Counted from the stretch's first letter, positions 4,497 through 61,340 are shown. The stretch: 64,000 nucleotides of DNA from Clostridia bacterium (GCA_900757025.1 CAAEMG010000007.1:7976-71975), one strand, 5' to 3'. Numbers and translations are program-made. The notes: a model not told the origin generated them from the sequence alone.

Positions 4497-4595
4497 AAAT
4501 TTTTGGTTTGACAAACAGATAATACCTTGAGGCTTTGCAAAAACGGTCTGCAACCGTCCCGTATTCATCGTAGTGCAAACTTTGCGCCTCCTAAA
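4497..4595 (+). repeat. Mosaic intergenic repeat, copy R1 (5' box AAATTTTTGGTTTGAC)
   Basis: Shares the AAATTTTGRTTTGAC box with 12071, 20844, 22248, 41411 and 61187, and GATAATACC with 13510. Confidence 0.5.
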
Positions 4596-4599
4596 AGGT

Positions 4600-5550
4600 T
4601 TAATCGCAACTTTCGATAAAAACACAAATATAACTTTCCGTCAAATCAAAATCCATTTTTTTCGTCTGCTCCAATATATTTTCCACAACATCATCAAAGG
4701 GGTCTTTTATGCCCTCTTTTTTTGCTGCCTCACTATATGAATTTCCAGGCATGGCATTTGCCTCACAGAAAATATAATCTCCTTTTTCACCCAAAAGAAA
4801 ATCCACACTTCCCAAATTTATGTTTAAAAGAGTGCCTATTTTTTCGGCATATTCAATAAGTTTTTCCTCGGCTGATATAAAATCTATTTTTCCTCCCTCG
4901 GAAAGATTGGATTTAAAGCTTTTTGAATTTGAACGCACAAAAGATGTTATAAATTTTCCTCCGCAAAGAATTACTCTCAAATCTTTTCCCTTAGATGATG
5001 ATATATACTCCTGTATAAGCACATCGTCATTATATTTTTTTGAAAGTTCCTCGGAAAGGCTCATTATTTCCTCAAAATTTTCGGCAAGCTCCACTCCGCT
5101 TCCCTGACTGCCGTTATTTATTTTAAGCACAACAGGATATGTAAATTTTTTTTCAACAAAATCCTTTGTTAAATAAGGCGTGTAAAGCATTGTTTTCGGC
5201 ACGGAAATATCCGTATTTTGTGAAACAGTAAGATATGTTTCAAGCTTATTTCCTGCGGAAATTATACACTGTGCGCCGTTTATAACTATTGTGTTTTTCC
5301 CTTCAAGCATACGGCTTACGGCAAGGTTATGGCTTGTTATATTGCCGAAATACGCCGATATAACAAATGGCGGAATTTCCGTCTTAATTCCTTTTACAAA
5401 AATATGTGTTTTGTCGCTGTCGCAAAAAACATCTATATCTTCTGTATTTACGGCTGTCATGTTTATGCCCTTATTTTTAAATCTGTCCGTAAATTTTTTT
5501 ATATCTTTTAAATTTCGGCTTTTTTCGCCAACAAGTATCCATGCCTTCAT
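4600..5550 (-). CDS. ATP-grasp protein, RimK-like ligase family
   Basis: Central PVVLKINNGSQGSGV and C-terminal ..EANAMPG.. ATP-grasp motifs. Start set at ATG 5550 (MKAWILV) with a GGAG SD. Confidence 0.65.
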   Translation of the reverse strand: MKAWILVGEKSRNLKDIKKFTDRFKNKGINMTAVNTEDIDVFCDSDKTHIFVKGIKTEIPPFVISAYFGNITSHNLAVSRMLEGKNTIVINGAQCIISAGNKLETYLTVSQNTDISVPKTMLYTPYLTKDFVEKKFTYPVVLKINNGSQGSGVELAENFEEIMSLSEELSKKYNDDVLIQEYISSSKGKDLRVILCGGKFITSFVRSNSKSFKSNLSEGGKIDFISAEEKLIEYAEKIGTLLNINLGSVDFLLGEKGDYIFCEANAMPGNSYSEAAKKEGIKDPFDDVVENILEQTKKMDFDLTESYICVFIESCD

Positions 5551-5614
5551 AATAAACTCCAGTAATATGCTAAATTGGGCAGAACCCAAAAACGGGAACT
5601 GCCCTTTAATAATT

Positions 5615-7270
5615 TTATTTTAATTCCGCAATAAGTTTTTCAACGGCTTCAAGAGCTTCATCGGGAAGTTTGTCGTAGCCTTCTTTAAATGTTTCTCTTG
5701 ATTTTATAAATTCAGCTCTGTCTTTAAGTCTTGCTTCCAAAAGACCGTGATATTTTGTATCTGTCATATCAGGAACAAAGCCTTCAACTTCCATAATTTC
5801 CAAATCGGAGAAATTATTCCATTTTTCAAACTGTGCCGTTCCTTCCACAACAGCCTCTATGCAGGAAAGAGTAACCTCTTTTGTTATCTTCTTATCTACA
5901 AAGAAACCTGTGTTAAGTATATAGCAGTCAACATTTTCGTTTTCAAAAAGGTCTTTAAACTTTTCATAGTCGTTTGCCAAAGGATATGTTCTGAAAGGAT
6001 TTGCATAGCTTTCAAAAACAAGTGCATCCGGATCTACCCCCGGAGCAAGTCTTTCGGCAGTTGTTCTTTTTGTTGCAAGAGCCGCACCCATTGCAGAAGA
6101 AAGAACCGAACCTTTAACCTTAACTATAGGCGGCATTGAAGGGTCTTTCATAAGATAGAATATGGCGTTTATAGGCTCTTCAAGTTTGTCAACTCTTTCC
6201 GGCGACCACAATTTGCTCTTTATTGCTCTTCCGTTTCCGTTTCTCAAATCTTCTGTTACAAGAACAACTTTGTTGTCCTCGTCAAGTGTTGCGCCTACGT
6301 TCTGAACAGAAAGGAGGTATTTATTGTCTGGGCTTGACATAGGATAATCCTGTGTTTTATCGAAATATGAAGGTTCAAGCGCCACAGATGAGCCGTTTTC
6401 CGTAGAAATAATAAAAGCGTCGTCGTGAAGAACGGTTATATCATATTTTCCGTCATGCTTTGCGTGTGTAATTGTGGATTTTCCGGAACCGGAAAGGCCG
6501 AAAACGCCAACAACAAATTTTCTTCCGTCCGGAAGGTTATAGCATTTTTCTCCTCCGTGGCAGGAAGCATAGCCGTTTCTGTTGGCTATTGTCCATGCAA
6601 GTGTAAGAGTTCCTTTTTTAAGCTCCCCAAAATATTTCATGCCGAGTATGCAGGCACAGTTGTGGAGAGGGTCAAAAAACGCAAGACCAAAAGGATAGTC
6701 GGGATGTGACCAGTCTGGGTCTGCAAAAATATATATATCGCCTTCGTTATTCATCTGTTTTGAATAACGGTACATTTTTGTGTATTCGGCTGTAATATAC
6801 TGGAAGTTGAGAAGCCAGTTATAAAGAAGAATTTCATGGTTTTCCGGTATACAAAGGTTTGCACGAACCATAAAATCCGGGTCAAGACCTATATATGCCT
6901 TGCCGTGATAAAGCTTTTTTGTTCTTGCCGCATATACGGCCTCTCTTATATGAGAACATATTTTTTTAACGTCAACACCGGGTTCTCCAGCTATTCTTCT
7001 TGCGGCGGCTGTTCTTCCCGTTACGGCTCCGTCGTTAAAAAGAAGAACCTTTGCGCCTTCCGGAAGACCTATTTCTTCCGGTCTTTCAACAGAAAGGTCT
7101 GTTATTACAACTCCCGGAGTTTTGCAGGCAAGTTCATAGCCCTGTTTGAGAGTTGTTACGGGAACTACATTATTTCCGTAAAATACGCTTTCGATAGTTG
7201 TTCTTGCCATAGAGAAAATGGGATTTTCCGTTGTTATTTCATCCCAGCTGAATTTTGCTTTTGTTGCCAT
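5615..7270 (-). CDS. pckA: Phosphoenolpyruvate carboxykinase (ATP)
   Basis: 551 aa. The kinase-1a P-loop GLSGSGKST and overall PEPCK-ATP pattern are present. Confidence 0.85.
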   Translation of the reverse strand: MATKAKFSWDEITTENPIFSMARTTIESVFYGNNVVPVTTLKQGYELACKTPGVVITDLSVERPEEIGLPEGAKVLLFNDGAVTGRTAAARRIAGEPGVDVKKICSHIREAVYAARTKKLYHGKAYIGLDPDFMVRANLCIPENHEILLYNWLLNFQYITAEYTKMYRYSKQMNNEGDIYIFADPDWSHPDYPFGLAFFDPLHNCACILGMKYFGELKKGTLTLAWTIANRNGYASCHGGEKCYNLPDGRKFVVGVFGLSGSGKSTITHAKHDGKYDITVLHDDAFIISTENGSSVALEPSYFDKTQDYPMSSPDNKYLLSVQNVGATLDEDNKVVLVTEDLRNGNGRAIKSKLWSPERVDKLEEPINAIFYLMKDPSMPPIVKVKGSVLSSAMGAALATKRTTAERLAPGVDPDALVFESYANPFRTYPLANDYEKFKDLFENENVDCYILNTGFFVDKKITKEVTLSCIEAVVEGTAQFEKWNNFSDLEIMEVEGFVPDMTDTKYHGLLEARLKDRAEFIKSRETFKEGYDKLPDEALEAVEKLIAELK

Positions 7271-7288
7271 TTTAAAATTCCTCCACTC

Positions 7289-7987
7289 TTACTGCATATT
7301 TTTAAGCATACCTTCAAGTATAATGCTTGAATTTTTAGCCGCTATTTTTGTAAATTCATCATAGCTTATGTCTGCGCCTTCGTCTGCCTTATCGGATATC
7401 GAACGGATTACGACATAAGGCATTTTGTTTAGATAGCACACATGGGCAACGGCAGCGCCTTCCATTTCGGCACAATATGCACCGAAAAGATTCCAAATTC
7501 TGTTTTTGGCTTCCGAAGAAGCTATAAACTGGTCGCCGCTGGCAACTGTGCCTTTAAACACTTTATGGTTTTCAAGGGCTTCTCCTGCTTTTTCGGCAAG
7601 GGCAATAAGTTCTTCGTCTGCCTTAAAACGGCTTTCTTCCATACGTGGAATTGTTCCCACAGGGTCGCCGAGGGCAGAAACATCCATATCGTGCTGAAGA
7701 GCATCTGTGGAAATAACAACATCGCCTATGTTAAGCTCTTTGTATACAGCTCCGGCAACGCCTATATTTATAACGCAGTCTACCGAAAAATGGTCTATAA
7801 GAACCTGTGTGCAGGCTGCGGCGTTTACCTTGCCTATGCCGCATTTAACTATAATAACGCTGTTGCCTCCGAATTTTGTAATATAAAAATCAAGACCCAA
7901 AATGTTTTTGGCAGTAACTATTTCGGCAATTTCTTTTATAAAAGCTATTTCCTCATCCATTGCGCCGATAATACCTATAGTTTTCAA
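7289..7987 (-). CDS. mtnN: 5'-methylthioadenosine/S-adenosylhomocysteine nucleosidase
   Basis: MKTIGIIGAMDEEI..., ..EMEGAAVAHV.., ..VVIRSISD.. are characteristic of Pfs/MtnN. Confidence 0.9.
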   Translation of the reverse strand: MKTIGIIGAMDEEIAFIKEIAEIVTAKNILGLDFYITKFGGNSVIIVKCGIGKVNAAACTQVLIDHFSVDCVINIGVAGAVYKELNIGDVVISTDALQHDMDVSALGDPVGTIPRMEESRFKADEELIALAEKAGEALENHKVFKGTVASGDQFIASSEAKNRIWNLFGAYCAEMEGAAVAHVCYLNKMPYVVIRSISDKADEGADISYDEFTKIAAKNSSIILEGMLKNMQ

Positions 7988-8179
7988 ACAATCATCTCCT
8001 ATAAAAATGGTTTCAGTGTTTATTTTAAGAACAAAAGTCTTTACTGTAAAAACAAAATAAATTATTTGTATCTTAGCATATTATTGTGTTAATATACAAT
8101 AGTAAAAGCAATGTTTTTAAGTATTTTTTACAATTAAAATAATAGTTTAAAATAAATATTATGTAAAGAAGGAGCATGT

Positions 8180-8878
8180 ATGAAGCCTGTTATTGCACTG
8201 AGCTGTGCCTATAATCAAGATGCCGAGGCATACAGCCTTAAAAAAAACTACTGTGAAATAATTGAAAAATGCGGCGGTATACCTTTTATTGTGCCCTATC
8301 TTTCCGAAGCAAATTCCGATGAAATTTTAAATACCGTTTCGGGAGTTCTCTTTACCGGCGGCGGCGACATAGCCCCTAACATTGCCGGCTTCGAACACGC
8401 CGTATACAGCCAAAACTGTAATGGAGAAAGAGATTTGTTCGAGCTTAATCTCTGTAAAAAATGCTATGAAAAAAATGTTCCCGTTCTTGGCATATGCCGT
8501 GGAATGCAGCTTATGTCAGTTGCCGCAGGAGGTCAGATTGCCGAAGATATAAGCCTTATTTCGGCTCATGCCAAAAGCCACAGACAGACAGTTGCGGGAA
8601 ACATTCCAACACATAAAATACACATTCAAAAAGACAGCCTTTTATATAAAATTTTGGAAAAAGACACTGTATACGTCAATTCTTTTCATCATCAGTGCGT
8701 TACAGACGGAGGCTTTCTTAGGTTAAGTGCATTTGCAAAAGACGGAGTTGCCGAAGCAGCTGAATTTGAAAAATACAATTCATTTGCATTGGGTGTTCAG
8801 TGGCACCCGGAAAGATGTCTTTCCGATGGCGTTTCGGAAAAAATAATTAAATATTTTATAGAAAAATGTAAAAAATAA
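8180..8878 (+). CDS. Class I glutamine amidotransferase, peptidase C26 (gamma-glutamyl-GABA hydrolase-like)
   Basis: GICRGMQL nucleophile elbow plus the ..FHHQ.. and ..VQWHPE.. motifs. Confidence 0.8.
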   Translation: MKPVIALSCAYNQDAEAYSLKKNYCEIIEKCGGIPFIVPYLSEANSDEILNTVSGVLFTGGGDIAPNIAGFEHAVYSQNCNGERDLFELNLCKKCYEKNVPVLGICRGMQLMSVAAGGQIAEDISLISAHAKSHRQTVAGNIPTHKIHIQKDSLLYKILEKDTVYVNSFHHQCVTDGGFLRLSAFAKDGVAEAAEFEKYNSFALGVQWHPERCLSDGVSEKIIKYFIEKCKK

Positions 8879-8899
8879 TTATACTACGGAGGTAAAACA

Positions 8900-9097
8900 A
8901 TGGATTTTTCAGTTGGGGATATTGTTCAGATGAAAAAAAGCCACCCTTGCGGAGGAAACACATGGGAAGTTTTAAGAACAGGAATAGATTTCAGAATTAA
9001 ATGCACAACCTGCGGACACATGGTAATGCTGCCAAGGTTTAAATTTGAAAAAAGCGTAAAGAAAATTGTTTCAAGGACTGATGAAAATGAAAAATAA
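8900..9097 (+). CDS. DUF951 family small protein
   Basis: 65 aa. GDIVQMKKSHPCGGNTWEVLRTGIDFRIKCTTCGH is the DUF951 pattern. Confidence 0.75.
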   Translation: MDFSVGDIVQMKKSHPCGGNTWEVLRTGIDFRIKCTTCGHMVMLPRFKFEKSVKKIVSRTDENEK

Positions 9098-10295: not shown

Positions 10296-10296
10296 A

Positions 10297-10350
10297 ATTT
10301 ATTGCTTTTTGTCATTCTAAGCATAGCGAAGTTGAAGAATTTCATAAATC
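10297..10350 (+). repeat. Mosaic intergenic repeat, copy R2 (short hairpin unit)
   Basis: CTTTTTGTCATTCTAAGCATAGCGAAG...GAAGAATTTCATAAA. Carries the same TTTTGTCATNNTRAGC box as the other copies. Confidence 0.55.
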
Positions 10351-10510: not shown

Positions 10511-12070
10511 ATGGATAAAATGTTTTGCTTTCAGTGTCAGCAGACGGCACACAATACAGGCTGTGAAGGCAGATGCGGAGTTTGCGGAAAAAAAGAAGAT
10601 ACGGCAAATGCACAGGATAATCTTACAAGCTCTCTTATAGGCCTTGCCAAAGCCGTAAAAAAATGCGGAGCAACAAAAACTTCCGATGAGCTTATTTTAA
10701 AAGGACTTTTTACAACAATAACAAATGTAAATTTCTATACAGAAACAGTTGAAAAACTTACGGCAGAAATTGAAAATGAAAAAAATTCAATCTGCGGCGG
10801 CACGGAAAATTATGACGTTAAAAAAATATGGGAAGACAACGAAGATATTCGTTCTTTAAAATCACTTATACTTTTCGGCATGAGAGGTATGGCGGCATAT
10901 GCCTACCATGCTTTTGCCCTTGGATATACGGATAAAGACGTAACAGACTTTTTCTATGAAGGCCTTTGTGCATTGGCAGAAGAAAACACAATGGAAAAAC
11001 TTTTGCCCGTTGTTTTAAAAACAGGCGAGGCAAACTTTAACTGTATGGCTCTTCTTGATAAGGCAAATACAGAAAGCTACGGAAATCCCGTTCCTACGGA
11101 AGTTCCTCTTACAATAGAAAAAGGGCCTTTTATAGTTGTAAGCGGACATGACCTTCACGACCTTAAACTTCTTTTGGAACAGACAAAGGACAAAGGCATA
11201 AATATTTATACCCACAGCGAAATGCTTCCTGCCCACGGCTATCCAGAGCTTAAAAAATATAAGCATTTAAAGGGAAATTTCGGCACGGCATGGCAAAGCC
11301 AGCAGTCGGAATTTCATAATATTCCCGCACCGATACTTTTTACAACAAACTGTCTTATGCCTGTACGCCAAAGCTACGCCGACAGAGTTTTCACAACTTC
11401 AGTTGTTTCATATCCGGAGCTTGTGCATATAGGCGAAGACAAAGATTTTACGCCTGTTATAGAAAAAGCGCTTGAATGCGGAGGATACAAAGAAGACCAC
11501 CCTATGACGGGAATAAACGGCGGAAGCACAGTAATGACAGGCTTTGCACATAACGCCGTATTGGAAAACGCAGGAAAAATAGTTGATTTGGTTAAAAAAG
11601 GAAAAATAAAGCATTTCTTCCTTGTGGGCGGATGCGACGGCGCAGCACCGGGCAGAAGCTATTACACAGAATTTGCAAAGAAAACACCTATGGACACAAT
11701 TATTCTTACTCTTGCCTGCGGAAAATACAGAATAAACGATTTGGATTTGGGCAATATAGAAGGACTTCCGAGAATTATGGACATGGGACAGTGCAACGAC
11801 GCCTACAGTGCCGTAAAAGTTGCTCTGGCTCTTGCCGAGGCTTTCAACTGTTCCGTAAACGAACTTCCTCTTACTCTTGTGCTTTCATGGTATGAGCAGA
11901 AGGCTGTGGCAATACTTCTTTCACTGCTTTATTTGGGAATAAAGAATATTTACCTCGGTCCTACACTTCCGGCTTTTGTATCGCCTAACGTGCTTAATTT
12001 CCTTGTGGAAAATTACAATATTTCGCCTATAAGCACACCGGAAGAAGATTTGAAAAAAATACTTGGGTAA
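10511..12070 (+). CDS. hcp: Hydroxylamine reductase / hybrid-cluster protein
   Basis: N-terminal Cys cluster MFCFQCQQT..C..C..C, 519 aa, Hcp pattern throughout. GGAGG lies 7 nt upstream. Confidence 0.9.
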   Translation: MDKMFCFQCQQTAHNTGCEGRCGVCGKKEDTANAQDNLTSSLIGLAKAVKKCGATKTSDELILKGLFTTITNVNFYTETVEKLTAEIENEKNSICGGTENYDVKKIWEDNEDIRSLKSLILFGMRGMAAYAYHAFALGYTDKDVTDFFYEGLCALAEENTMEKLLPVVLKTGEANFNCMALLDKANTESYGNPVPTEVPLTIEKGPFIVVSGHDLHDLKLLLEQTKDKGINIYTHSEMLPAHGYPELKKYKHLKGNFGTAWQSQQSEFHNIPAPILFTTNCLMPVRQSYADRVFTTSVVSYPELVHIGEDKDFTPVIEKALECGGYKEDHPMTGINGGSTVMTGFAHNAVLENAGKIVDLVKKGKIKHFFLVGGCDGAAPGRSYYTEFAKKTPMDTIILTLACGKYRINDLDLGNIEGLPRIMDMGQCNDAYSAVKVALALAEAFNCSVNELPLTLVLSWYEQKAVAILLSLLYLGIKNIYLGPTLPAFVSPNVLNFLVENYNISPISTPEEDLKKILG

Positions 12071-12185
12071 ATTTTGATTTAACGGACAGTTCCATTTATC
12101 AAAAACCGCCAATATTTTGTCATTGTTATTTTTCATTTTGAGCAACGAAATCTTCGTGTTTCGCAGCTCAACATAACAAATATTA
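12071..12185 (+). repeat. Mosaic intergenic repeat, copy R3 (5' box plus TIR pair)
   Basis: ATTTTGATTTAACGG box. Left TIR AATATTTTGTCATTG..TTGAGC (12111-) and inverted partner GCTCAACATAACAAATATT (12165-12183). Confidence 0.65.
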
Positions 12186-13469: not shown

Positions 13470-13770
13470 ATTTTGGTAAAAGAACCCTAATTGATAATAC
13501 CGTCCGGTTGCTTATGAAAGCGTTGGCAAAAAATAAACACACAATAATAAAAAATAGTAGGCAAAAGCAATAAAAGTAATACATGGTAACAAATCAAAAG
13601 TTGGGTAATACTTTTCTTTGCCGAAAACCATCAATATTTTGTCGTGTTGAGCGAATGTCGCAAGACCGCAGTCGAATACATGAAAAAAACGATAAACTTA
13701 CGGGTTTCGTCTAATCTCATAAGTTCTTTCGGCTCCGTTTCATTTCGCTTAGGATAACAAAATATTTTAG
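13470..13770 (+). repeat. Mosaic intergenic repeat, copy R4 (TIR pair enclosing about 90 bp)
   Basis: Left TIR CAATATTTTGTCGTGTTGAGCGAA (13632-13655). Inverted partner TTTCGCTTAGGATAACAAAATATTTT (13743-13768). Upstream pieces are shared with R1 and R6. Confidence 0.65.
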
Positions 13771-13870
13771 ATTTTAAACTATTCGCCAAGCCATAATTTT
13801 TCTTCCCCACACAGCAAAAAACAGTGCCGTGAATTAAATTCCCGACACTGCCTTTTTTAAATTTCATTCA

Positions 13871-20843: not shown

Positions 20844-21030
20844 AAATTTTGGTTTGACGGATACATTTTATTTTAAAAAACTAAATTAATTTGTCATGTT
20901 GAACGGAGCGAATTTCGCTCAGAATGACAAATAGAAATAGTTTTATCAAAGTTTAGGGCAACCATTTTTAAATGGGTGTAAGTGTATTGGGGCAAAGCCA
21001 CCAAAGCCTTATCTGTTTTAAAAAACCTAA
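20844..21030 (+). repeat. Mosaic intergenic repeat, copy R5 (5' box, adjacent TIR hairpin, GGGGCAAAGCC tail)
   Basis: AAATTTTGGTTTGACGG...TTTTATTTTAAAAAACTAAA aligns with R6 over about 90 nt. TIR hairpin TTTGTCATGTTGAACGGAGCGAA/TTCGCTCAGAATGACAAA at 20887-20932. Confidence 0.7.
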
Positions 21031-21113
21031 TTTACTTTTCTTCCCCCAATATTTCCAATTTCGGCTTTATATTCTTTTCCCACTTTGTTATACTTATTTC
21101 ACGGAGGTGTATT

Positions 21114-22190: not shown

Positions 22191-22213
22191 GCAATAAGTT
22201 TTAAATTTATAAA

Positions 22214-22244
22214 AGCTTGAGTTTTTTTACTCAAGCTTTTTTTT
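22214..22244 (+). terminator. Intrinsic terminator of sppA
   Basis: AGCTTGAGT-TTTTTT-ACTCAAGCT followed by TTTTTTTT. Confidence 0.85.
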
Positions 22245-22247
22245 AAT

Positions 22248-22590
22248 AAATTTTGATTTGACGACTGCCTTTTATTTTAAAAAACTAAAATATTTTGTCA
22301 TCCTGAGCGAAGTGAAATGAGTCAGAATTTTGCTACGCAAAACCACATTCGGTGGCAACACTTTTTTGCTGTTTTCTGTCGAAGCATCCCATAAACCCGG
22401 ACAAAAAGCCGAAAGTCTGTCATCTTTACATATTCGACAATGTGGACGAGATGTTTCGACTACGTATGCGAACCCTATTGGGCGGCGCAACCGTTCCACA
22501 AGGTGGATTTCGCAGCCCGACCCTCAACATGACAAATATCGGTGGCTTTTTGTAGGGAAAACTATCCCCAATCCCTAATTTTACAAACTT
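22248..22590 (+). repeat. Mosaic intergenic repeat, copy R6 (largest; TIR-bounded, GC-richer core)
   Basis: 5' box AAATTTTGATTTGACG. Left TIR ATATTTTGTCATCCTGAGCGAAG (22290-) and inverted partner CTCAACATGACAAATAT (22523-22539). All six frames are open but none looks coding. Confidence 0.7.
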
Positions 22591-25964: not shown

Positions 25965-26115
25965 TTGTTTGTAAAATAGTTTTTTTGTCAAAAGCCGACC
26001 ACATTTTGTTATGCTGAGCAAACGCAGTAAGCTGAAACATCTTATCTATATTGTCGAATATGCGGCAAAACATTAAAGCTTTTATCAAAAAGAACTATCC
26101 CTAAGTTCAAAACTT
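25965..26115 (+). repeat. Mosaic intergenic repeat, copy R7
   Basis: CACATTTTGTTATGCTGAGCAAACGC box (26000-). ATTGTCGAATATG is the inverted form of CATATTCGACAAT in R6. ACTATCCCTAAG is shared with the R6 tail. Confidence 0.6.
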
Positions 26116-28395: not shown

Positions 28396-28411
28396 CAGCA
28401 TAAATTCAATA

Positions 28412-28495
28412 TTTAACAGGGGTGCTGAGGTGCTGCAACCTATGCTGAGAGAGTCCCTTTGAACCTGATGCGGTCAGTACCGTTGTAGGGAGTAT
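28412..28495 (+). promoter_or_regulatory. TPP (THI-box) riboswitch
   Basis: ACAGGGGTGCTGAGG...CTGAGAGAGTCCCTTTGAACCTGATGCGGTCAGTACCGTTGTAGGGAG matches the conserved THI element core. It lies upstream of tenA. Confidence 0.9.
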
Positions 28496-28582
28496 GATAT
28501 ATTTGTTTATTTTAAACCATCTCCCTGCGGAAATGGCTTTTTTTATGTTCTTTAAAGCCCCATTAATAAAAGGAGGATATTT

Positions 28583-29996: not shown

Positions 29997-30740
29997 ATGA
30001 AAAAAAATACTCCGGCGGTTCTGCTTGCCATTTTTCTGCTTGTGCTTTGGCAGATAATAGCCATGGTTATAAATGCAGCATATATTCTGCCTTCGCCTGT
30101 GCAGATAGCCCAGAAAATATGGGATTTAAAAGCAAATCTCTTTCTTGTGCAGCTTCCGGCAACAATGTCCGTTACGGCTGTAGGTCTTGGAATATCAATA
30201 GTTTTAGGGCTTTTGCTTGCGGTTATAATGGACGCAGACGAAAAAATCGAAAACGCACTTTATCCAATTATAATCGCTTCGCAGACAATACCGACAACAG
30301 CCATAGCGCCTCTTTTCGTTCTTTGGTTCGGCTACAGCATATGGAGCAAGGTTCTTGTAACAATACTCATAACCTTCTTTCCCGTAACAATAACGGTTTT
30401 TGATGGGCTTAAAAGCACAAGCCGTGAAATGGAAGAACTTCTTATAACCTGCGGAGCAGACAAAAAAGATATTTTCTTTAAACTCAAAGTTCCCCAGACA
30501 CTGCCATATTTCTTTTCGGCAATAAAAATGGCAATTCCTTTAAGCATAATAGGTGCGGCAATAGCCGAATGGCTTGGAGCGCAAAGCGGACTTGGCTATT
30601 TCAGCAAAAGAATGATGACACAGCTTGACGGTGCAGGTGTTTTTGCCCCTGTTGTTCTTCTTTCGGCAGTGGCAATGATTATTGTTGCCCTCATAAATAT
30701 AATTGAGAAAAAACTCATAAAGTGGCGAAAAGAAATTTAA
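29997..30740 (+). CDS. ABC transporter permease (NitT/TauT family, ThiX-like)
   Basis: 247-aa six-TM permease immediately after the ATPase. Confidence 0.8.
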   Translation: MKKNTPAVLLAIFLLVLWQIIAMVINAAYILPSPVQIAQKIWDLKANLFLVQLPATMSVTAVGLGISIVLGLLLAVIMDADEKIENALYPIIIASQTIPTTAIAPLFVLWFGYSIWSKVLVTILITFFPVTITVFDGLKSTSREMEELLITCGADKKDIFFKLKVPQTLPYFFSAIKMAIPLSIIGAAIAEWLGAQSGLGYFSKRMMTQLDGAGVFAPVVLLSAVAMIIVALINIIEKKLIKWRKEI

Positions 30741-30840: not shown

Positions 30841-31105
30841 TTTTATATTATTTTTCAACTTCTCGCCGCAAATTTTATTTCTATTTTCTTTTTTGCTATT
30901 TGGTAAAGTATTATTGCCGCAATCATAACCGTAGTTTCCGTAACGGGAAATGTAAACCACGTATACACCAAACCAAATCTGCTGAAAACATATGCCAAAG
31001 GAACCAGTAGTGTCACCTGTCTTAAAACAGCATCGGTTTTGGCAAAACAAAATTGTTTTCGACAAACAGTAAGTGTTCAACACACTATACTCCTCCCTAA
31101 AATTT

Positions 31106-31142: not shown

Positions 31143-32021
31143 TTATTTAACTTTATTTGTTATTTTGCCTATTTTTTCTATTTCACACACAACCTCGTCA
31201 CCGCTTGAAAGGAATTTGGGCGGAACAAAGCCCATTCCGACTCCGGAAGGCGTTCCTGTTGAAATTATCGTTCCTGTTTCAAGTGTCATTCCTTTTGTAA
31301 GCTCTGTCATAACGTCTGTTATTGTGTGTATAAATTTATCTGTAGATGAATTTTGTCTAAGCTCGCCGTTTACATAGCATTTAACATTTAACTTAGGCGG
31401 AAATTCAATTTCATCTGCCGTAACAATCCAAGGGCCCATAGGCGTAAAACCGTCAAGACCTTTGCCGAAATACCACTGGTTGTGTCTTGTCTGAAGTTCC
31501 CTTGCCGTTACATCGTTTATAATCGTGTAGCCGAAAATATAGTCGGAAACCTTATCTGCCTCAACATTTTTTGCGTCTTTGCCTATTATAAGTGCAAGCT
31601 CCGACTCATAGTCGAGAGTTGAAATAATGTCGCTGTGGCTTATAATATCATCGCCGTCGGCAGTTGCCCTGTTTACTCTTTTAGAGAAATAAACAGCATA
31701 ATCTTCGCAGTTTGAAAAAGCCTCTTTTTTATATCTTTTAGACTCTGCTGCGTGTTCGGCATAGTTTATTCCCAAACATACAATATCCTGCTTTGGCTTT
31801 GGTATAGGTGCTTCCAGCTTAACGGTATCAAAGCCTTCCTCGCCTTTTCCGCCGTCTTCAAGCAAAGCCATTTTTTTAAGGCTTTCTTTATCGGCTCTTT
31901 TAATAAGGTCATTCATATCTTTATAATCAAAGCCGTTTTCGTTTACAGGTACGGCTGTATTTTTTTTTGTTATAACGCAGACAAATTCTTTTCCGTTTTT
32001 GCTGCAAGTTGCAAGCTTCAT
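31143..32021 (-). CDS. Fumarylacetoacetate hydrolase (FAH) family protein
   Basis: 292 aa. ..ESELALIIGKDAKNV.., ..GKGLDGFTPMGPW.. and ..GTPSGVG.. are FAH-fold motifs. Confidence 0.8.
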   Translation of the reverse strand: MKLATCSKNGKEFVCVITKKNTAVPVNENGFDYKDMNDLIKRADKESLKKMALLEDGGKGEEGFDTVKLEAPIPKPKQDIVCLGINYAEHAAESKRYKKEAFSNCEDYAVYFSKRVNRATADGDDIISHSDIISTLDYESELALIIGKDAKNVEADKVSDYIFGYTIINDVTARELQTRHNQWYFGKGLDGFTPMGPWIVTADEIEFPPKLNVKCYVNGELRQNSSTDKFIHTITDVMTELTKGMTLETGTIISTGTPSGVGMGFVPPKFLSSGDEVVCEIEKIGKITNKVK

Positions 32022-41402: not shown

Positions 41403-41408
41403 GATGTG

Positions 41409-41630
41409 AATTAGGGTTTGACGAATACTCATTTTTGTTTAAAGCCACCAACCTTTTGTCATGTTAAGTTTGCGGAATCTATGTATTCCGCCTGCGAATT
41501 CCTCTTTGCGGAACGGCTCGTTCAGAATTTTCCTTTGGAAAATTCTTGACCAAGCAAAATTCCTGAGCAAAGGAAGGCTTGTAGGGTGTTGGGGCAAAGC
41601 CCCAAGGTCTTAAACAAATCAAAATTTTAC
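41409..41630 (+). repeat. Mosaic intergenic repeat, copy R8 (array of short hairpins)
   Basis: TTAGGGTTTGACGAATAC box, CCTTTTGTCATGTTAAG box, and hairpins at 41472-41491, 41525-41545 and 41591-41603. The TTGTAGGG..GGGGCAAAGCC tail is shared with R5 and R6. Confidence 0.65.
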
Positions 41631-52947: not shown

Positions 52948-53095
52948 AGCTCAGCACCTCCAAACAAAATAAAAAAAGCGGACAGCAAAACTATCCGCAA
53001 AAAATCTACATAAAGGCTTATGCCTAAAGTTATATTTATTAACCCTGTCGTGCTTTGTGCCGCAAGGTGAGAAGCGGATACTTCTGCTTTGTTAC
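52948..53095 (-). promoter_or_regulatory. infC-rpmI-rplT leader with a terminator/antiterminator (L20-leader-type attenuator)
   Basis: Minus-strand hairpin GCGGATAG-TTTTG-CTGTCCGC plus T7 (52998-52971) lies upstream of the SD. An upstream TATCCGC can pair with the terminator 5' arm. Confidence 0.55.
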
Positions 53096-55194: not shown

Positions 55195-55435
55195 TAAAAA
55201 AGCCCCTGTCCGCATTTGCAGACAGGGACGAATTAACGTGGTTCCACCCTGATTATTTTTTCCTAAGAAAAAACATCTCTAAAGCCTTAACGCAGCTTAA
55301 ACGGGCATTTTTTCAGTGCCGCTCAAAGTTCAGTTTTCACCGCAATGTTTCTTAAAAACGCTTTCAGCCTGTGGCGTTTTCTCTCTTTAAGGCTTGTATA
55401 CGGCTACTCTACTTTTCATAGCTTTTTTCTTATAC
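55195..55435 (-). promoter_or_regulatory. T-box leader (threonine-type) with a terminator
   Basis: Minus strand carries AGAGAG, the T-box AATCAGGGTGGAACCACG (55254-55237) and the terminator CCCTGTC..GACAGGG plus a T-run (55227-55195). Candidate specifier is ACT in GGTGAAAACTG. Confidence 0.85.
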
Positions 55436-55441
55436 ATTGGC

Positions 55442-55469: not shown

Positions 55470-55619
55470 TATAATTTTTTTGCTTTTTAATATTTATAAA
55501 TTTAGAGCAATGAAGCAGTAACCGGTACACAGCCGTCAGCAGACAGAAAAAACTTGCCCACTGTTTAACGAATACTGAAAAAACTACACAAATTCTACAT
55601 AATTTTTTTAGTAATTATG

Positions 55620-55648: not shown

Positions 55649-55650
55649 AG

Positions 55651-55662: not shown

Positions 55663-55699
55663 TCTTTTGGGCGTTTATTTTTTTGAAAGGAATTTTATA

Positions 55700-56138
55700 A
55701 TGCAAAACACTGAAAAAGAAAAGCATATCGGTCTTATTTTTAAGCAAATTCATAACAAAACCATTCAGCGTATGCACTCCTGCCTTGCGGCAGACGACCT
55801 TACACTTTCTCAGCTTGCAGTACTTGACTGTATTTTTGAAAATGAAAAAATTTCAGTCAAAGACCTTGAAGAAGAATTCAGTATGCAAAGGTCAACAACC
55901 CTCGGAATTTTAAAAAGAATGTGCTGCAAGGGTCTTATAGAATATTTTCCCGACGAACATGATAAACGCTGCCGAATTATACGCCCCACAAAAAAGGCAT
56001 ATGATTTGAAAAAAAAAGACAGACGAACACAAACAGAATCTTGACATTCTTATGCTTGAAACTTTAACCAAAGACGAAGTGAAAGAGCTTCGCTGTCTTT
56101 TAAACACTGTTTTGAGCAATTTAAGCAAGGAGGTATAA
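55700..56138 (+). pseudogene. MarR-family regulator, frameshifted at an A9 tract (56009-56017)
   Basis: The wHTH part is in frame 1 up to ..KAYDLKKK. The C-terminal helix (TDEHKQNLDILMLETLTKDEVKELRCLLNTVLSNLSKEV*) is in the next frame. An A8 tract would restore one ORF. Confidence 0.8.
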
Positions 56139-56142
56139 AAAA

Positions 56143-57489
56143 TTGAATAAAGATGTATTTGAAAAACAATCTGTGCCAAAAGCCGTGGCAACTCTTGCCC
56201 TTCCCACAATACTCAGTATGCTTGTAAACGTTTTTTACAACATGGCAGACACGTTTTTCGTTGGACAGACAGGTGACGCCAATCAGGTTGCGGCAGTTTC
56301 ACTTACAATGCCGATATTCATGTTTATTATGGCAGTAGGAAACATTTTCGGTGTAGGCGGAAGCTCATATATTTCCCGTAGCCTTGGAGAAGGAAAATAT
56401 GAAGAAGTTAAAAAGACTTCTGCATTTTGTTTTTACATGGGCATAGCAGCCGCAATAGTTGTTATGATAATATTTTTTGTTTTTATGGACCCTATTGTTA
56501 AAGGCATAGGCGCAGACGAAAACACATATGGTTTTGCAAAGCAGTATCTTACATATATTGCCTCCGGTTCAATATTTGTTGTTATTTCAATGGCTTTCGG
56601 AAACATTGTACGTTCCGAAGGTGCTGCAAAAGTTTCCATGGCAGGCATGATGCTTGGCACTGTTGTAAACATAGTTCTTGACCCAATAATGATTTTATAT
56701 TTGGGCATGGGCGTTGCCGGAGCAGCCATAGCAACCGTAATAGGAAACATTTCAACTGTTATTTTCTACCTTATATACCTTAAAAAAGGCAAAACAATAC
56801 TTGATATAAGCAAAAGCCACTTTAAAATTACAAAGAAAATTGCTAAAAACGTATTTGCAATAGGTATTCCGGCATCAATTACCAATGTGCTTATGGGTCT
56901 TTCAAACGTAATTTTAAATTCACTTCTTGTTGTATACGGAAATAACCCTGTTGCCGGCATGGGCGTTGCCATGAAAGCAAATATGCTTGTTATATTTGTG
57001 CAGATGGGTCTTGCCATGGGAACACAGCCTCTTGTAGGCTACTGTTTCGGCAGCGGAAACATAAAGCGTCTTAACAGCGTAATGAAGTTTTCAATGCTCT
57101 GCAACGTAATAATGGGCTCAGTACTTACTGCTGTATATTATTTCTCGGCAGACAAAATAGTTCAGATATTCATTTCCGATGCTGAAGTTATAAAATACGG
57201 AGCACAGATGCTTAAAGCTCTTATGCTTTCCGGCCCTGTAATAGGCGTTATGTTTGTTTTCTCATTCTCTTTCCAGGCAATGGGCAAAGCAATACAGGCT
57301 CTTATACTTTCCGTAAGCCGTCAGGGTTTTGTTTTCCTTCCCGTTATTATTATAGCCAGCAAAGTTTGGGGACTTGACGGAATTATATTTGCACAGCCAA
57401 TAGCCGACATTGCATCGCTTTTGCTTGCATTTATAATGTTTTTTCAAATAATAGAAAAAGCCAAAAAACACCACGAAATCGGATTATAA
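56143..57489 (+). CDS. MATE family efflux transporter
   Basis: 448 aa, 12 TM. ..LALPTILSMLVNVFYNMADTFFVGQ.. is the MATE N-terminal pattern. TTG start lies 9 nt after GGAGG. Confidence 0.9.
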   Translation: MNKDVFEKQSVPKAVATLALPTILSMLVNVFYNMADTFFVGQTGDANQVAAVSLTMPIFMFIMAVGNIFGVGGSSYISRSLGEGKYEEVKKTSAFCFYMGIAAAIVVMIIFFVFMDPIVKGIGADENTYGFAKQYLTYIASGSIFVVISMAFGNIVRSEGAAKVSMAGMMLGTVVNIVLDPIMILYLGMGVAGAAIATVIGNISTVIFYLIYLKKGKTILDISKSHFKITKKIAKNVFAIGIPASITNVLMGLSNVILNSLLVVYGNNPVAGMGVAMKANMLVIFVQMGLAMGTQPLVGYCFGSGNIKRLNSVMKFSMLCNVIMGSVLTAVYYFSADKIVQIFISDAEVIKYGAQMLKALMLSGPVIGVMFVFSFSFQAMGKAIQALILSVSRQGFVFLPVIIIASKVWGLDGIIFAQPIADIASLLLAFIMFFQIIEKAKKHHEIGL

Positions 57490-57497
57490 TTTTTATT

Positions 57498-57527
57498 GAA
57501 GCCTCGTTTAAAGCGAGGCTTTTTTTA
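57498..57527 (+). terminator. Intrinsic terminator after the MATE gene
   Basis: GAAGCCTCG-TTTAAAG-CGAGGCTT followed by TTTTTT. Confidence 0.85.
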
Positions 57528-57594
57528 TACATATATTTTAATAAAAATATGGAAAACATAGGTTTATGTATATTACAATATAGTAAAAGGAGGA

Positions 57595-58821
57595 ATGAAC
57601 GTGGACAGAACAATACTTCACTGCGACTGCAACAACTTTTTTGCCTCTGTTGAAGAAAGAGAAAACCCTTCACTTAAAGAAATTCCCGTTGCCGTTGGCG
57701 GAGATGAAAAAAGCCGTCACGGAATAATACTGGCAAAAAATCAGCTTGCAAAAAAATACGGAATAAAAACCGCCGAAACCATATGGCAGGCAAAACGAAA
57801 ATGTCCCGATTTAAAAATAGTTCCGCCTCATTACCAATGGTATAAAGAATGTTCAAGGCAGATAAACCAAATTTATCTTCAATACACAGATTTGGTTGAA
57901 CCTTTCAGCATAGACGAAAGTTTTCTTGACGTAACAGGCAGCCGGAAACTTTTCGGCAGCGGAAAAACCATAGCCGACAGCCTGAGAAAAAGAATATATG
58001 AGGAAATAGGCATAACCATATCCGTAGGCGTTTCTTTCAACAAAATTTTTGCAAAACTTGGCAGCGACTACAAAAAGCCCGATGCAACAACTGTTATATC
58101 AAAAGAAAATTACAAGCAGATTGTTTTTCCTCTTTCTGCCGACAGCCTTATGTTCGTTGGCAAAAGCTGTACCGAAGAACTGCGTAAAATGGGCATATAC
58201 ACAATAGGGGATATTGCCCTTAGCGACAAAAAACTGCTTGAAAAAACTCTCGGAAAAGCCGGCACACAGCTTTATACATATGCCTGTGGTCTTGACGAAG
58301 AACCTGTAAGAAGTTTTTATGAAAAAGAAACTGCAAAATCCATAGGAAACAGCATAACTTTTTCGAGAAACCTTACGTCTGTAAACGATATAAAAACCGC
58401 CGTTTCCGCCCTTTCTCAGCAGGTATCGGGAAGGCTCAGAAAACACCGTCTTGCAGGCTCTACCGTACAGATAGGCATAAAATATTCCGATTTTAAATAT
58501 ATAAGCCGCCAAAAAACTCTTCTTAACCCCACAAATGTTTCAAAAGAAATAGAAGATAACGCAGTCGAGCTTATACTTACAAACATGACAAAAGGAAAGC
58601 CAATACGCCTTATATCCGTTCAAATGTCATCTCTTGTTCCGGAAGAAAACGCAGTACACCAGATTTCTCTTTTTCAGGACGAAAACAAAAACTATGACAA
58701 AATACACCGCCTTGACGAGGCTCTTGACAAAATACGTGGCAAATACGGAAAAAACGCCATAAACACAGGCGGAATAATGGCAAGCGACATAGGGCTTAAC
58801 GGCAACCGACGGGAGGACTGA
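57595..58821 (+). CDS. dinB: DNA polymerase IV (Y-family)
   Basis: ..ILHCDCNNFFASVEERENP.., ..FSIDESFLDVTG.. The true start may be GTG 57601, 7 nt after GGAGG. Confidence 0.9.
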   Translation: MNVDRTILHCDCNNFFASVEERENPSLKEIPVAVGGDEKSRHGIILAKNQLAKKYGIKTAETIWQAKRKCPDLKIVPPHYQWYKECSRQINQIYLQYTDLVEPFSIDESFLDVTGSRKLFGSGKTIADSLRKRIYEEIGITISVGVSFNKIFAKLGSDYKKPDATTVISKENYKQIVFPLSADSLMFVGKSCTEELRKMGIYTIGDIALSDKKLLEKTLGKAGTQLYTYACGLDEEPVRSFYEKETAKSIGNSITFSRNLTSVNDIKTAVSALSQQVSGRLRKHRLAGSTVQIGIKYSDFKYISRQKTLLNPTNVSKEIEDNAVELILTNMTKGKPIRLISVQMSSLVPEENAVHQISLFQDENKNYDKIHRLDEALDKIRGKYGKNAINTGGIMASDIGLNGNRRED

Positions 58822-58825
58822 AAAA

Positions 58826-59482
58826 ATGGAAAATTTTAAAAAAATCGATTTTGAAAACTGGAACAGAAAAGAACACTATAAATACTATACAGAAAAACTT
58901 AAAGTAGGCTACAGCATGACAGTAAGCCTTGATGTAACAAACATAGTAAATTTCTGCAAAAAAAATAACATTAAATTTTTTAACGCATTTATATACTGCG
59001 TAGGAAAAGTTATAAATAGTACAGACAATTTAAGAATGTTTAAGGATAAAGACGGCATGCCATGCGTATGGAACAAATGCGTGCCAAATTACACAATATT
59101 CCATAAGGACGACGAAACATTTTCGGATTTATGGAGTGATTTCGACTTTGACTTTGAAGTATTTAGCCAAAACATGAATAACGATATAAAAACCTACGGC
59201 AATATAAAAGGCATAAAAGCAAAAGAAAACCAGCCGCCAAACTTTTTCTGCATATCCTGTGTGCCTTGGATAAATTTTACAGCCTACACAGCTTATACGG
59301 CAGAAGGCACACCTGCTTTTTTCCCAATAATAACCTACGGAAAATATGTTGAAGAAAACGGAAGATTAAAAATGCCTTTTAATATGTCAATTTCTCATGC
59401 CGTATGTGACGGATACCATGCGGCAAAATTTTTCAACAATGTTCAAAAAGAAATTGATGATTTTGAAAACTTAATAAAATAA
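58826..59482 (+). CDS. cat: Type A chloramphenicol O-acetyltransferase family protein
   Basis: 218 aa and aligns along its length with classical CAT. Active-site block ISHAVCDGYHAAKF is present (classical HHAVCDGFH). Confidence 0.8.
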   Translation: MENFKKIDFENWNRKEHYKYYTEKLKVGYSMTVSLDVTNIVNFCKKNNIKFFNAFIYCVGKVINSTDNLRMFKDKDGMPCVWNKCVPNYTIFHKDDETFSDLWSDFDFDFEVFSQNMNNDIKTYGNIKGIKAKENQPPNFFCISCVPWINFTAYTAYTAEGTPAFFPIITYGKYVEENGRLKMPFNMSISHAVCDGYHAAKFFNNVQKEIDDFENLIK

Positions 59483-59486
59483 AAAA

Positions 59487-59525
59487 ATACCGTTATGTTT
59501 CCCAAAAGGATTTTCATAACGGTAT
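59487..59525. terminator. Bidirectional terminator between cat and the GT2 gene
   Basis: ATACCGTTATG-...-CATAACGGTAT flanked by A/T runs. Confidence 0.85.
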
Positions 59526-59532
59526 TTTATAT

Positions 59533-60822
59533 TTACATATCTTTTGACGTTGTAAGAGAAAAATCTCCTGCCGCATGGTGCTTTATTTCAGACCATTCAA
59601 CATGTGTAAGAAGAGCAGTAATTGTTATAGGTATGTATGTTGCCATAAACAGAGGGAAAAGCCATATATATTTAAGCTTGTCAGCAGCCGAAGCATTTAT
59701 TCTCTTCCATTCGCTTAAAACAACAAGAAGAGCATATATTGCCATGCCTATATAGAAATTTATAACACCCCATGAGGCATAATGAATTGCTTCATGGAAA
59801 ATTCTGTATATTTTGTAATAAGGAAGTACAAATATTCCCGCACAAAGCATTATATTAAATATAAGCACTGAAATTGTAAGCAAAGTACAAGGTGCTATTG
59901 TCATAAACATATCATAGCAGGTAAAACGGTTTCCCTTTTTGCCGAAAAAGCCTTTCAAAAGAGGAACAAGATATTTTGCATCAACCTGGAAGAAACCTTT
60001 AGACCATCTAAGACGCTGTTTCCAGCTCTGGCTGAAAGTTGTAGGCTGTTCGTCATAAACAACAGCACTGTCGCAGTAGCCTATTTTTTTGCCCGATACG
60101 GCACAGTTTATTGAAAACTGAATATCTTCCGTAAGAAGATGGAAAGGCCAGCCTCCGTTTTCCTCTATAAGCTTGTCGGAAACAAGAAATCCTGTTCCGG
60201 AAACGGCACAGCCTGTACCCATAAGACGGCGTGGATAATTTATAAAACGTGCCTCTCTTAAAAACCATATTGAATATCCTGCCGAAATCCAGTTTGCACC
60301 GAAATTTTTTGAGTTTCTGTAGCAGGTAATTGCATCATATTTACCCGTATCAAAAGTTTTGTTCATTTCGTTTACGAAATTTGGGTCAACAATATTGTCG
60401 GCATCAAAAATAAAATATCCGTCATATGGCTTATAGTTTTCTTCGCCTTTTATTTTCTTTATAAGATAATCAAGTGCATATCCTTTGCCAACCTGCATTT
60501 TGTTCTGTCTTTCATAAACAAAAGCACCTGCATTTTTTGCAACAGCTGCCGTTGAATCGTCACAGTTGTCGGCAAGAACATATATATCAAAAAGTTCTTT
60601 GGGATAATTTTGTTCTTTAAGTGTTTTTACAAGCTGTGCAATAACATTTTCCTCGTTTCTGGCACATATAAGCGCCGCAAAACGATGAAGTTTTGACGCT
60701 TCCGGTTCTTTTCTTGACTTTCGGCTTACCAAACCTATTACAGTAAAAACAACCTGATATACATATGCTGCCGTAAGAGTTATAAGAATAATCAAATTCA
60801 TATTATGAAGCAGTGTGTACAT
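59533..60822 (-). CDS. Processive family 2 glycosyltransferase (membrane-embedded, IcaA/PgaC/cellulose-synthase-like)
   Basis: N- and C-terminal TM segments. D,D,D,QxxRW signature present (..LADNCDD.., ..IFDADN.., ..LTEDI.., ..QRLRWSKG..). Confidence 0.8.
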   Translation of the reverse strand: MYTLLHNMNLIILITLTAAYVYQVVFTVIGLVSRKSRKEPEASKLHRFAALICARNEENVIAQLVKTLKEQNYPKELFDIYVLADNCDDSTAAVAKNAGAFVYERQNKMQVGKGYALDYLIKKIKGEENYKPYDGYFIFDADNIVDPNFVNEMNKTFDTGKYDAITCYRNSKNFGANWISAGYSIWFLREARFINYPRRLMGTGCAVSGTGFLVSDKLIEENGGWPFHLLTEDIQFSINCAVSGKKIGYCDSAVVYDEQPTTFSQSWKQRLRWSKGFFQVDAKYLVPLLKGFFGKKGNRFTCYDMFMTIAPCTLLTISVLIFNIMLCAGIFVLPYYKIYRIFHEAIHYASWGVINFYIGMAIYALLVVLSEWKRINASAADKLKYIWLFPLFMATYIPITITALLTHVEWSEIKHHAAGDFSLTTSKDM

Positions 60823-60824
60823 AT

Positions 60825-60856
60825 TTATCTCTCCTTGTTATTATCTCTCCTTGTTA
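60825..60856 (-). repeat. Perfect 16-bp tandem duplication containing the GT2 Shine-Dalgarno sequence
   Basis: TTATCTCTCCTTGTTA x2 (plus strand), which reads TAACAAGGAGAGATAA x2 on the coding strand. Confidence 0.9.
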
Positions 60857-61186
60857 AAGAATATACATTTGTGTTAAATATACATTTCTAATTTTCCTAA
60901 AAATATATAATAGCCACAAACGGATATAAGTCAAGAAATAAAAATACGGAAAAACACTGCGTAAAATTGTTAAAATAGATAATTGAGGTTTTTGTTTCGC
61001 AGCCAATTATTGGAAAAAAATATCTAATGTATACAAATATAGCGTTAGCCACTTAAAAAAATTGGGCATAACCGCAAAAAAATAACCGCTGATAAAAAAA
61101 TAACAATTATTGTTAATTAATAAAAAATTAAGGGATATTTAAGAAATCAAAAGAGAATATACAGGAAAATTATTCAGTTTCTGGTA

Positions 61187-61340
61187 AATTTTGATTTGAT
61201 AAAAATATTGCTCTGCTTGTAATTACTCTTTTCAAAGGCAGTATTCAGTTGACAGTGTTAAGTGAGCAGTCGGCAGTTTTTCCGACTGCTGCACACTAAT
61301 CACCGATTTTTGTCAAAAATAAGTATTCGCCAACTACCAA
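61187..61340 (+). repeat. Mosaic intergenic repeat, copy R9
   Basis: AAATTTTGATTTGAT box, GTGTTAAGTGAGC box, hairpin GCAGTCGG..CCGACTGC, and TTTTTGTCAAAA. Confidence 0.5.

Follow-up and report, generated by a model that had tools for sequence, protein, structure and literature searches.

Intergenic repeats of a gut Clostridia species as a probable composite of MITE-like ends and Ssn-type target hairpins

A dispersed repeat family was analyzed in a 64,000-nucleotide stretch of a Clostridia genome (hereafter the window; G000:C7:7976-71975), in which two sequence boxes, box a and box b, recur between genes. Our analysis indicates that the family is probably a composite of two separable parts, namely the ends of a MITE (a transposable element of the miniature inverted-repeat type), represented by box a, and a hairpin recognized by a small GIY-YIG nuclease of the Ssn type, represented by box b. 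This reading is based on the anatomy and stem covariation of box b, its linkage to and co-occurrence with the nuclease gene, and the copying of whole units bounded by box a ends. The source assembly, G000, comprises 1.72 Mb in 177 contigs with a G+C content of 37.6% and a completeness of 84%. It has the taxonomic look of Clostridia. A T-box and an L20 leader are present, and Clostridia and other Firmicutes have ClpC proteins approximately 60% identical to its own. In human-gut metagenomes the species is frequent, with one of its proteins found in 144 blocks of a metagenome collection. Self-BLAST of G000 gave 172 repeat regions of approximately 31 kb in total, and approximately 90% of the box a ends and box b units were located within the non-coding 14% of the genome. 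The first-pass annotation of the window had described a dispersed, mosaic, intergenic family resembling MITEs or bacterial interspersed mosaic elements (BIMEs), and this description is borne out genome-wide.

Box a as the end of a MITE-like family

Box a is the terminal inverted repeat (TIR) of a TA-flanked, MITE-like family. The ends are approximately 24 bp long, and oriented copies read AAATTTTGATTTGACGRAYA at the left and, on the other strand, AAATTAGGGTTTGGCGAAYA at the right. A position-weight scan of G000 detected 182 ends, 94 on the + strand and 88 on the − strand, compared with 19 in the reversed sequence used as a control, and 58 clean inward-facing pairs spanning 58–494 bp were obtained. 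Near-identical copies of whole units occur at unrelated loci; a 124-bp member is matched at 122/124 nt and an 86-bp member at approximately 80/86 nt, and the similarity among these copies ends exactly at AAATT...AATTT. The base just outside these young copies was T at the left end in 5/6 cases and A at the right end in 6/6. Together with the terminal A and T of the element itself, each end therefore reads TA, which fits insertion at TA. No target-site duplication of 3–8 bp was found. In the window, box a was verified at 4498, 12069, 20844, 22248, and 61186 with at most one mismatch (5 found against 0.10 expected from shuffling). The copy assigned to 41411 is present in the variant form AATTAGGGTTTGACG at 41408, and the supposed degenerate copy at 55564 failed the position-weight scan and is probably a chance match.

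It had also been proposed that every box a lies on the + strand, and that this uniform orientation hints at a link to the direction of replication. Neither proposal survived, as the − strand carries ends at 4654 and 13799 in addition to degenerate ones that terminate at 21033, 22581, and 41627, and both strands are used genome-wide as described above. The + strand seemed favored because the right-hand inverted ends, being variant (AAATTAGGGTTTGGCG) or degenerate, had been overlooked. The local GC skew and the gene-strand bias in G000 were correlated (r = 0.85), so that both could be used as proxies for replication direction. Neither the box a ends nor the box b units were associated with either proxy (Fisher p 0.45–1.0), and this independence is the outcome that the annotation itself had named as speaking against its orientation claim.

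The exact box a sequence was found in 23 copies in G000 and in none of 40 relatives, including two same-genus genomes of other species (G001 and G002). A search of 185,579 species genomes returned 15 matching stretches, nearly all of which were single chance matches, and 7 of 21 hits in a metagenome set were from the same species, the rest being chance. Among the collections searched, box a is confined to one species, and there was no sign in the species genomes or the metagenome set of an insertion-sequence terminus bearing box a outside it. Three hits in a Eubacteriales metagenome-assembled genome (SGB_4764; L090, L093, and L094) were rejected as box a, as they represent a different repeat with internal similarity. 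These three share an identical repeat end with the box a 20-mer located approximately 40 nt inside, which may be an unrelated insertion-sequence end. A 2,140-bp self-repeat on contig C142, considered as a candidate insertion sequence, was instead a tandem gene array (G000:C142:4480-6619) of four paralogous genes encoding approximately 110 residues (KQKREEKIMKITVEAV...) with 79–85% DNA identity. Box a was also rejected as a plain promoter, because consensus matches were confined to the opposite strand, where they overlie box b. These matches, ATGACA-16-TAAAAT on the − strand at 22301-22274 and 20897-20870, are formed by the subterminal module together with the box b complement and point out of the element towards box a; they are promoter-like by consensus only.

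The box b hairpin and a linked GIY-YIG gene

A box b unit is composed of GTC, a 5-bp stem arm ATNNT, GAGCG-RA, a variable hairpin, RA-GTCGA, the closing stem arm ANNAT, and C, as exemplified by TTTGTCATTCTGAGCGAAACGCAGTGGAGTCGAAGAATCTCATAAA. In G000, the insert between GAGCG and GTCGA is 5–65 nt long, and the two bases following GTCAT covary with the two following GTCGAA (GT/AC 35, TC/GA 15, CC/GG 7, and AT/AT 2). The two arms of an inverted pair differ in NN, indicating that selection acts on the hairpin of each arm and not on a long palindrome. In the window, box b was verified on the + strand at 10309, 12130, 13639, 20891, 22295, 26006, and 41456 (4 strict matches against 0.03 expected), together with the inverted partners on the − strand at 12179, 13760, 20930, and 22535. 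The positions given in the first-pass annotation were off by 1–10 nt, and the spacing it noted between box a and box b holds genome-wide (37–45 nt, generally approximately 44 nt).

The hairpin extends far beyond this species. The pattern TTGTCATNNTGAGCG-N(1-31)-GTCGAANNATC, for which we estimate approximately 2 chance matches, hit more than 120 stretches from Acidobacteriota, Verrucomicrobiota, Bacteroidota, Planctomycetota, Chloroflexota, Patescibacteria, Proteobacteria, Actinomycetota, Spirochaetota, and Clostridia. The free NN positions were Watson-Crick paired in 129/136 cross-phylum copies with 8 pair types, while shuffled NN partners gave on average 43 pairs, and never more than 60, among the 136. 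The long inserts were hairpins of unrelated sequence in 49/53 cases, set between RA dinucleotides, and the last two insert bases before GTCGA were GA in 49, AA in 24, CA in 18, and TA in 7 of 103 inserts. The translation SLRMTK that had been read on the strand opposite box b is correct, and the suggestion that similar spurious open reading frames (ORFs) exist in other genomes was right as well, given that the motif spans many phyla. The box b hairpin accounts for a very common class of spurious annotated ORFs (..FAQDDK.. and ..SLRMTK..). No Rfam family matched the units, with searches reaching E ≤ 10 for the window and E ≤ 1 for 8 loci from other phyla. A hammerhead, a k-turn, or another ribozyme was rejected for GAGCG...GTCGAA, as CUGA is unconserved (GTTGAGCG is commonest) and no Rfam match was obtained. 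On one Acidobacteriaceae contig (L142:86-191), a Y RNA-like (YrlA) match with E = 1.9e-8, below the gathering score, was located 23 nt upstream of a minimal box b unit. A full-text literature search for the motif letters retrieved unrelated primers only.

The lead examined was that tgtcatcctgagcg hairpins are linked to Ssn nucleases. SsnA of Neisseria meningitidis is a 94-residue single-domain GIY-YIG enzyme (Chenal et al. 2025, Nat Commun 16:2388, PMC11893778) that binds the NTS hairpin CGTCATTCCCGCGMAVGCGGGAATCYRG as single-stranded DNA (ssDNA) only, on one strand, and cuts a few bases upstream of it. Cutting is governed by the three bases before the palindrome and binding by the C after it; the catalytic tyrosines Y6 and Y17 and the metal-binding glutamate E64 are the residues mutated in that enzyme, and an Ssn gene is typically bracketed by its motif (PMC11893778). 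G000 contains one small GIY-YIG gene (C61:5893-6189), which encodes 98 residues. The Pfam GIY-YIG domain covers residues 3–75 of this single-domain protein (E = 4.6e-19), and Y6, Y17, and E64 are invariant in a 12-sequence cross-phylum alignment. The nearest solved structures were UPF0213 proteins with E = 8e-7 only. The 98-residue protein is predicted to be an Ssn-type GIY-YIG nuclease and is a putative member of the CDD class cd10448.

The gene is bracketed by box b, with units upstream at C61:5551, 5731(−), and 5760 and downstream at 6224, 6335(−), and 6364, and no box a is present at this locus. Such bracketing was also observed at three other loci (L130, L193, and L241). Of 120 random box b loci inspected, 5, representing four phyla, had a homologue (43–60% identity) no more than 100 bp from the motif, and at two of these the gene was bracketed. 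Conversely, box b units were detected in 18/80 homologue loci against 0 in the reversed control, and Ssn-related motifs (SRMs) matching the published string in 6/80, including the Neisseria form TGTCATTCCCGCGAACGCGGGAATCCAG. Homologues with 51–58% identity were flanked by canonical NTS-type SRMs, and a 73%-identical gut homologue was flanked by GTCATCCTGAGCGAAGCGAAGGATC. Among 24 same-family relatives, none had the nuclease gene; 23 lacked the motif, and one had a single match. With 1,797 hits, mostly of 91–100 residues, the protein belongs to a very large family. By its frame, compared with the NTS and NTSvar strings, and its gene linkage, box b is assigned to the SRMs as a variant form.

Mosaic elements in the window and among strains

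The two parts are found both together and apart. Clean end pairs enclosed 42 of the 88 complete box b units, and 62 had an end no farther than 250 bp away; 19/58 clean end pairs contained no box b, and some box b units or pairs stand alone without box a. These box b-free pairs and lone units, together with the nuclease locus devoid of box a, indicate that the parts are separable and often nested. Box b is arranged alone, as inverted pairs around a core of approximately 80 nt, fused head-to-head, or nested in MITEs, and its variable hairpin position can hold a 60-nt module shared with a different mosaic repeat of G002. The latter genome, which lacks box a, box b, and the nuclease gene, possesses its own 400–480-bp mosaic repeat of many small TTCG-loop hairpins (L106-L114), one module of which, approximately 60 nt, is shared with the insert at 22318-22378 of the window. 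Further shared tiles had been listed for the window, with mixed outcome. GGGGCAAAGCC is a real module, with 10 genomic copies and 0 in the reversed control; for TTTCGCAGC the enrichment was weak (18 against 5). CATATTCGACAAT belongs to the core of the box b pair (3 against 1), while TGTAGGG, ACTATCCC, and GATAATACC showed no enrichment over the control and are attributed to chance. The elements identified in the window are as follows, where a dot denotes that no strand was assigned.

4496..4656 (.), complete TIR element of 157 bp without a box b unit; left end 4498-4520 and inverted right end 4632-4654 (CCGTCAAATCAAAATCC), the latter unnoticed in the first-pass annotation; position-weight scores 24.7 and 21.8
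10309..10341 (+), solo box b unit, an SRM-like hairpin (TTGTCATTCTAAGCATAGCGAAGTTGAAGAATT) with the stem ATTCT/AGAAT fully paired
12069..12183 (+), truncated element; left TIR 12069-12092 and fused b+/b− hairpin 12130-12179
13634..13799 (.), degenerate box b inverted pair (13639 on +, 13760 on −) with a core between
13776-13799 (−), inverted right TIR after this pair (AAATTATGGCTTGGCGAATAG); position-weight score 28.3
20844..21033 (.), 190-bp element; left TIR 20844-20867, fused b+/b− hairpin 20891-20930, and GGGGCAAAGCC at 20989
ending at 21033 (−), degenerate right TIR of the 20844 element (AAATTAGGTTTTTTAAAACAGATA)
22248..22581 (.), full 334-bp element; left TIR, 44-nt subterminal module, box b, core, inverted box b, and right TIR
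22295..22388 (+), box b unit with a 60-nt nested module (GTCAGAATTTTGCTACGCAAAACC...) at the variable hairpin position
22450..22535 (−), inverted box b unit with a 55-nt insert and the stem ATGTT/AACAT fully paired
22562-22581 (−), right TIR of the 22248 element (AAATTAGGGATTGGGGATAG)
26006..26100 (+), box b unit and core fragment; the unit 26006-26043 is TTGTTATGCTGAGCAAACGCAGTAAGCTGAAACATC with 4/5 of the stem paired
41408..41627 (.), 220-bp element; variant end AATTAGGGTTTGACG on + at 41408, box b half-site at 41456, hairpin modules, GGGGCAAAGCC at 41591, and a degenerate T-type end AAATTTTGATTTGTTTAAGAC on − with the outermost base at 41627
61186..61210 (+), solo box a-like end (AAATTTTGATTTGATAAAAATATTG); position-weight score 21.0

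The 4498 element and an ATP-grasp/RimK-like gene on the minus strand (ORF 4600..5589) overlap, the former with its right end and the latter with its 3′ end, and an adjacent T-run (4655-4662) varies in length among strains, which shifts the called end of this ORF. No box a end was located near the 10309 unit or for the 26006 copy, and no recognizable right TIR was found for the 12069 element. The fused hairpin at 12130-12179 (CATTTTGAGC...GCTCAACATAAC) exhibited a DNA fold with z = −2.5, and that at 20891-20930 a fold of −14.8 kcal/mol with z = −5.8. The 22248 element directly follows the sppA terminator (22211-22240), and the polarity of the 41408 element is opposite to that of the 20844 and 22248 copies. 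The end at 61186 is only weakly assigned to the family, and neither an adjoining family module nor a self-BLAST repeat region is present there.

Other strains, 99–99.4% identical to G000, were recovered through exact-protein look-ups; a rubrerythrin look-up gave no match. The presence/absence polymorphism suggested for strain comparison was not seen for the elements at 4498, 20844, 22248, 26006, and 41408, which were present in all 4–10 other strains examined, and was seen for one internal module. The 4498 element was present in 4 strains with substitutions concentrated within it, and the 20844 and 22248 elements in 9 strains each, the latter with 24 segregating sites. The spacer of the 26006 copy had an identical length in 9 strains, and that of the 41408 element had the same length in the contigs of 3 strains that span it. 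The share of segregating sites was 5.65% for the elements, compared with 2.96% for the remaining spacers and 2.05% for coding DNA. A metagenome strain contig (L374) lacked a 228-bp box b pair module within C18:43303-43763, and the junction exhibited the microhomology AAATGT. Two strain contigs diverged just past the box b unit downstream of the nuclease gene, which may be an assembly artefact. In the comparison of G001 and G002 with the window elements, synteny was broken at every element and the DNA identity was 67–80%.

Several other features of the window were recorded. A T-box leader (55221-55428, −), an L20 leader (52964-53095, −), and a thiamine pyrophosphate (TPP) riboswitch (28408-28508, +) scored above the Rfam gathering thresholds, and position 55564, the rejected box a, is just upstream of the T-box region. 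Of ten other strains, four carried an additional MatE efflux gene of 1.25 kb at 31024-31032, a site flanked by ORFs 29997..30740 and 31143..32021; this gene was absent from the window and five other strains.

Explanations considered and comparison with known systems

The composite of MITE ends and an Ssn-recognized hairpin would operate as follows. The box a MITE would be non-autonomous and would have inserted at TA in AT-rich spacers, often just after terminators, and would now be mostly fixed and decaying. This carrier may have spread box b pairs by TA insertion through a transposase that has since been lost or was not assembled. The 98-residue nuclease would recognize the box b hairpin as ssDNA on one strand and, by analogy with Neisseria SsnA, may cut a few bases 5′ of it, producing a nick 5′ of GTCAT. 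Box b would be single-stranded, and so bound, during uptake, conjugation, or replication, so that the role in the cell would concern incoming or replicative ssDNA. ComEC is present in G000. Nicking would bias recombination and deletion at box b sites, and the mosaic may have been formed by such events together with nested insertions into the variable hairpin. The more specific proposal that box b is a distinct cross-phylum class of Ssn target, outside the SRM definition as published, which in this species rides the MITE as inverted pairs while nuclease cuts drive the swapping, deletion, and nesting of modules, is put forward tentatively, and we regard it as rather doubtful at this stage.

Several observations weigh against the composite. 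No empty site was seen for any end-to-end element at the 5 loci checked, all of them being occupied in 4–10 strains, and no DDE_3, DDE_Tnp_1, rve, or Y1 transposase was detected in the 84%-complete assembly, where the contig ends gave no hint of a missing insertion sequence. TA was present at both ends of 18/58 pairs against a null of 15, and a TA target cannot be distinguished from an extension of the inverted repeat because TA is palindromic. On the box b side, nearest-neighbor DNA energies predict no stable fold for single units (z = +0.8 and +1.0, compared with −5.5 for the Neisseria NTS), and the published degenerate SRM string, which does match NTS, misses box b (3 hits in G000 against 1 in the control). 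Box b is termed a variant class for these two reasons, i.e., the missed string and the lack of a predicted fold for the single unit. Finally, box b-type units occurred at just 22% of the homologue loci (18/80).

These points were weighed together with three other explanations. An ordinary MITE family, in which the inner hairpins are incidental and the GIY-YIG gene was hit by insertions by chance without a functional tie, would account for the presence of inverted ends with flanking TA, the division into size classes, and the near identity of copies at unrelated loci, and the polymorphism of the copies relative to spacers (5.65% vs. 2.96%) is as expected of unconstrained DNA. We consider it unlikely, since box b occurs without box a as solo units, as pairs, and at the nuclease locus, spans many phyla whereas box a is in one species, and brackets homologous nuclease genes in other phyla. 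It is more improbable that the modules are transcribed structured RNAs, such as small RNAs or processing or stability elements, with the covariation reflecting RNA folding. The covarying stem, the nested modules made up of strings of small hairpins with TTCG and GAA loops, the outward promoter-like ATGACA-16-TAAAAT over box b on the − strand, and the many copies in positions resembling 3′ untranslated regions after terminators are all compatible with such RNAs. However, Rfam is empty even at E ≤ 10, the units occur on both strands irrespective of gene direction, and diversity among strains is high; moreover, Neisseria SsnA is inactive on RNA (PMC11893778), and the gene linkage indicates a partner at the DNA level.

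The first-pass annotation had suggested, as the cognate protein, a RAYT, i.e., the Y1 (TnpA_REP) transposase associated with repetitive extragenic palindromic (REP) sequences. A REP/BIME-type system spread by such an enzyme shares with the present family the mosaic of small hairpins in spacers, but it is highly improbable here, as no Y1_Tnp (PF01797) match was detected in the genome, no GTAG tag is conserved (TA precedes GTCGA in 7/103 inserts), and the flanking gene encodes a GIY-YIG protein instead of a Y1 enzyme.

The first description of Ssn nucleases dates from 2025. With one predicted Ssn gene and about a hundred target-like hairpins in a Clostridia species common in the human gut, and in a form that the published search pattern misses, the true spread of the Ssn system is probably underestimated. 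Hairpins packed in inverted-repeat elements, together with a strain lacking one pair module, provide testable ideas on how such motifs multiply. If the MITE-borne, nuclease-driven mosaic is true, it would be a first concrete route for the multiplication of Ssn motifs and the reshaping of spacers, and the hairpin with a variable insert may offer a new specificity for single-strand DNA tools.

The system resembles the Ssn/SRM system in several respects. The protein is a small single-domain GIY-YIG protein (98 residues here and 94 in Neisseria) with Y6, Y17, and E64, its gene is bracketed by the repeat, about a hundred copies of which are intergenic, and the gene and motif co-occur. In the compared frames (CGTCATTCCCGCGMAVGCGGGAATC vs. 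TGTCATNNTGAGCG...GTCGAANNATC), GTC is located 5′ of a hairpin that starts with AT, ends with AT, and is followed by C, which gives the motif its orientation. Unlike the known SRMs, box b is no plain palindrome, as its covarying stem of 5 bp is followed by an internal loop that is purine-rich and conserved and by an inner hairpin that varies from 0 to 65 nt. It is missed by the search string as published. The present host belongs to the gut Clostridia, whereas most described Ssn hosts are Gram-negative. TA-flanked MITEs, such as the Correia elements of Neisseria and those derived from IS630/Tc1-mariner, share with the family imperfect TIRs, TA at both ends (here in the young copies), lengths of 60–500 bp, intergenic location, size classes arising from internal deletion, and one possible outward promoter. 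The family differs in its highly mosaic interior and in having ends found in one species only, and the analysis detected neither a parent insertion sequence or transposase nor any empty site. In the NIMEs (Neisseria intergenic mosaic elements), many repeat sequence (RS) modules are set apart by dRS3/NTS hairpins, with Correia elements as intruders (Bentley et al. 2007, PMC1797815). Both systems contain many module families of 50–150 bp separated by a short nuclease-target hairpin (a predicted target here), arrays that vary among strains, other nested repeats, and spacers beside genes. In place of long tandem arrays, the present elements mostly carry one inverted hairpin pair each, located inside inverted-repeat boundaries.

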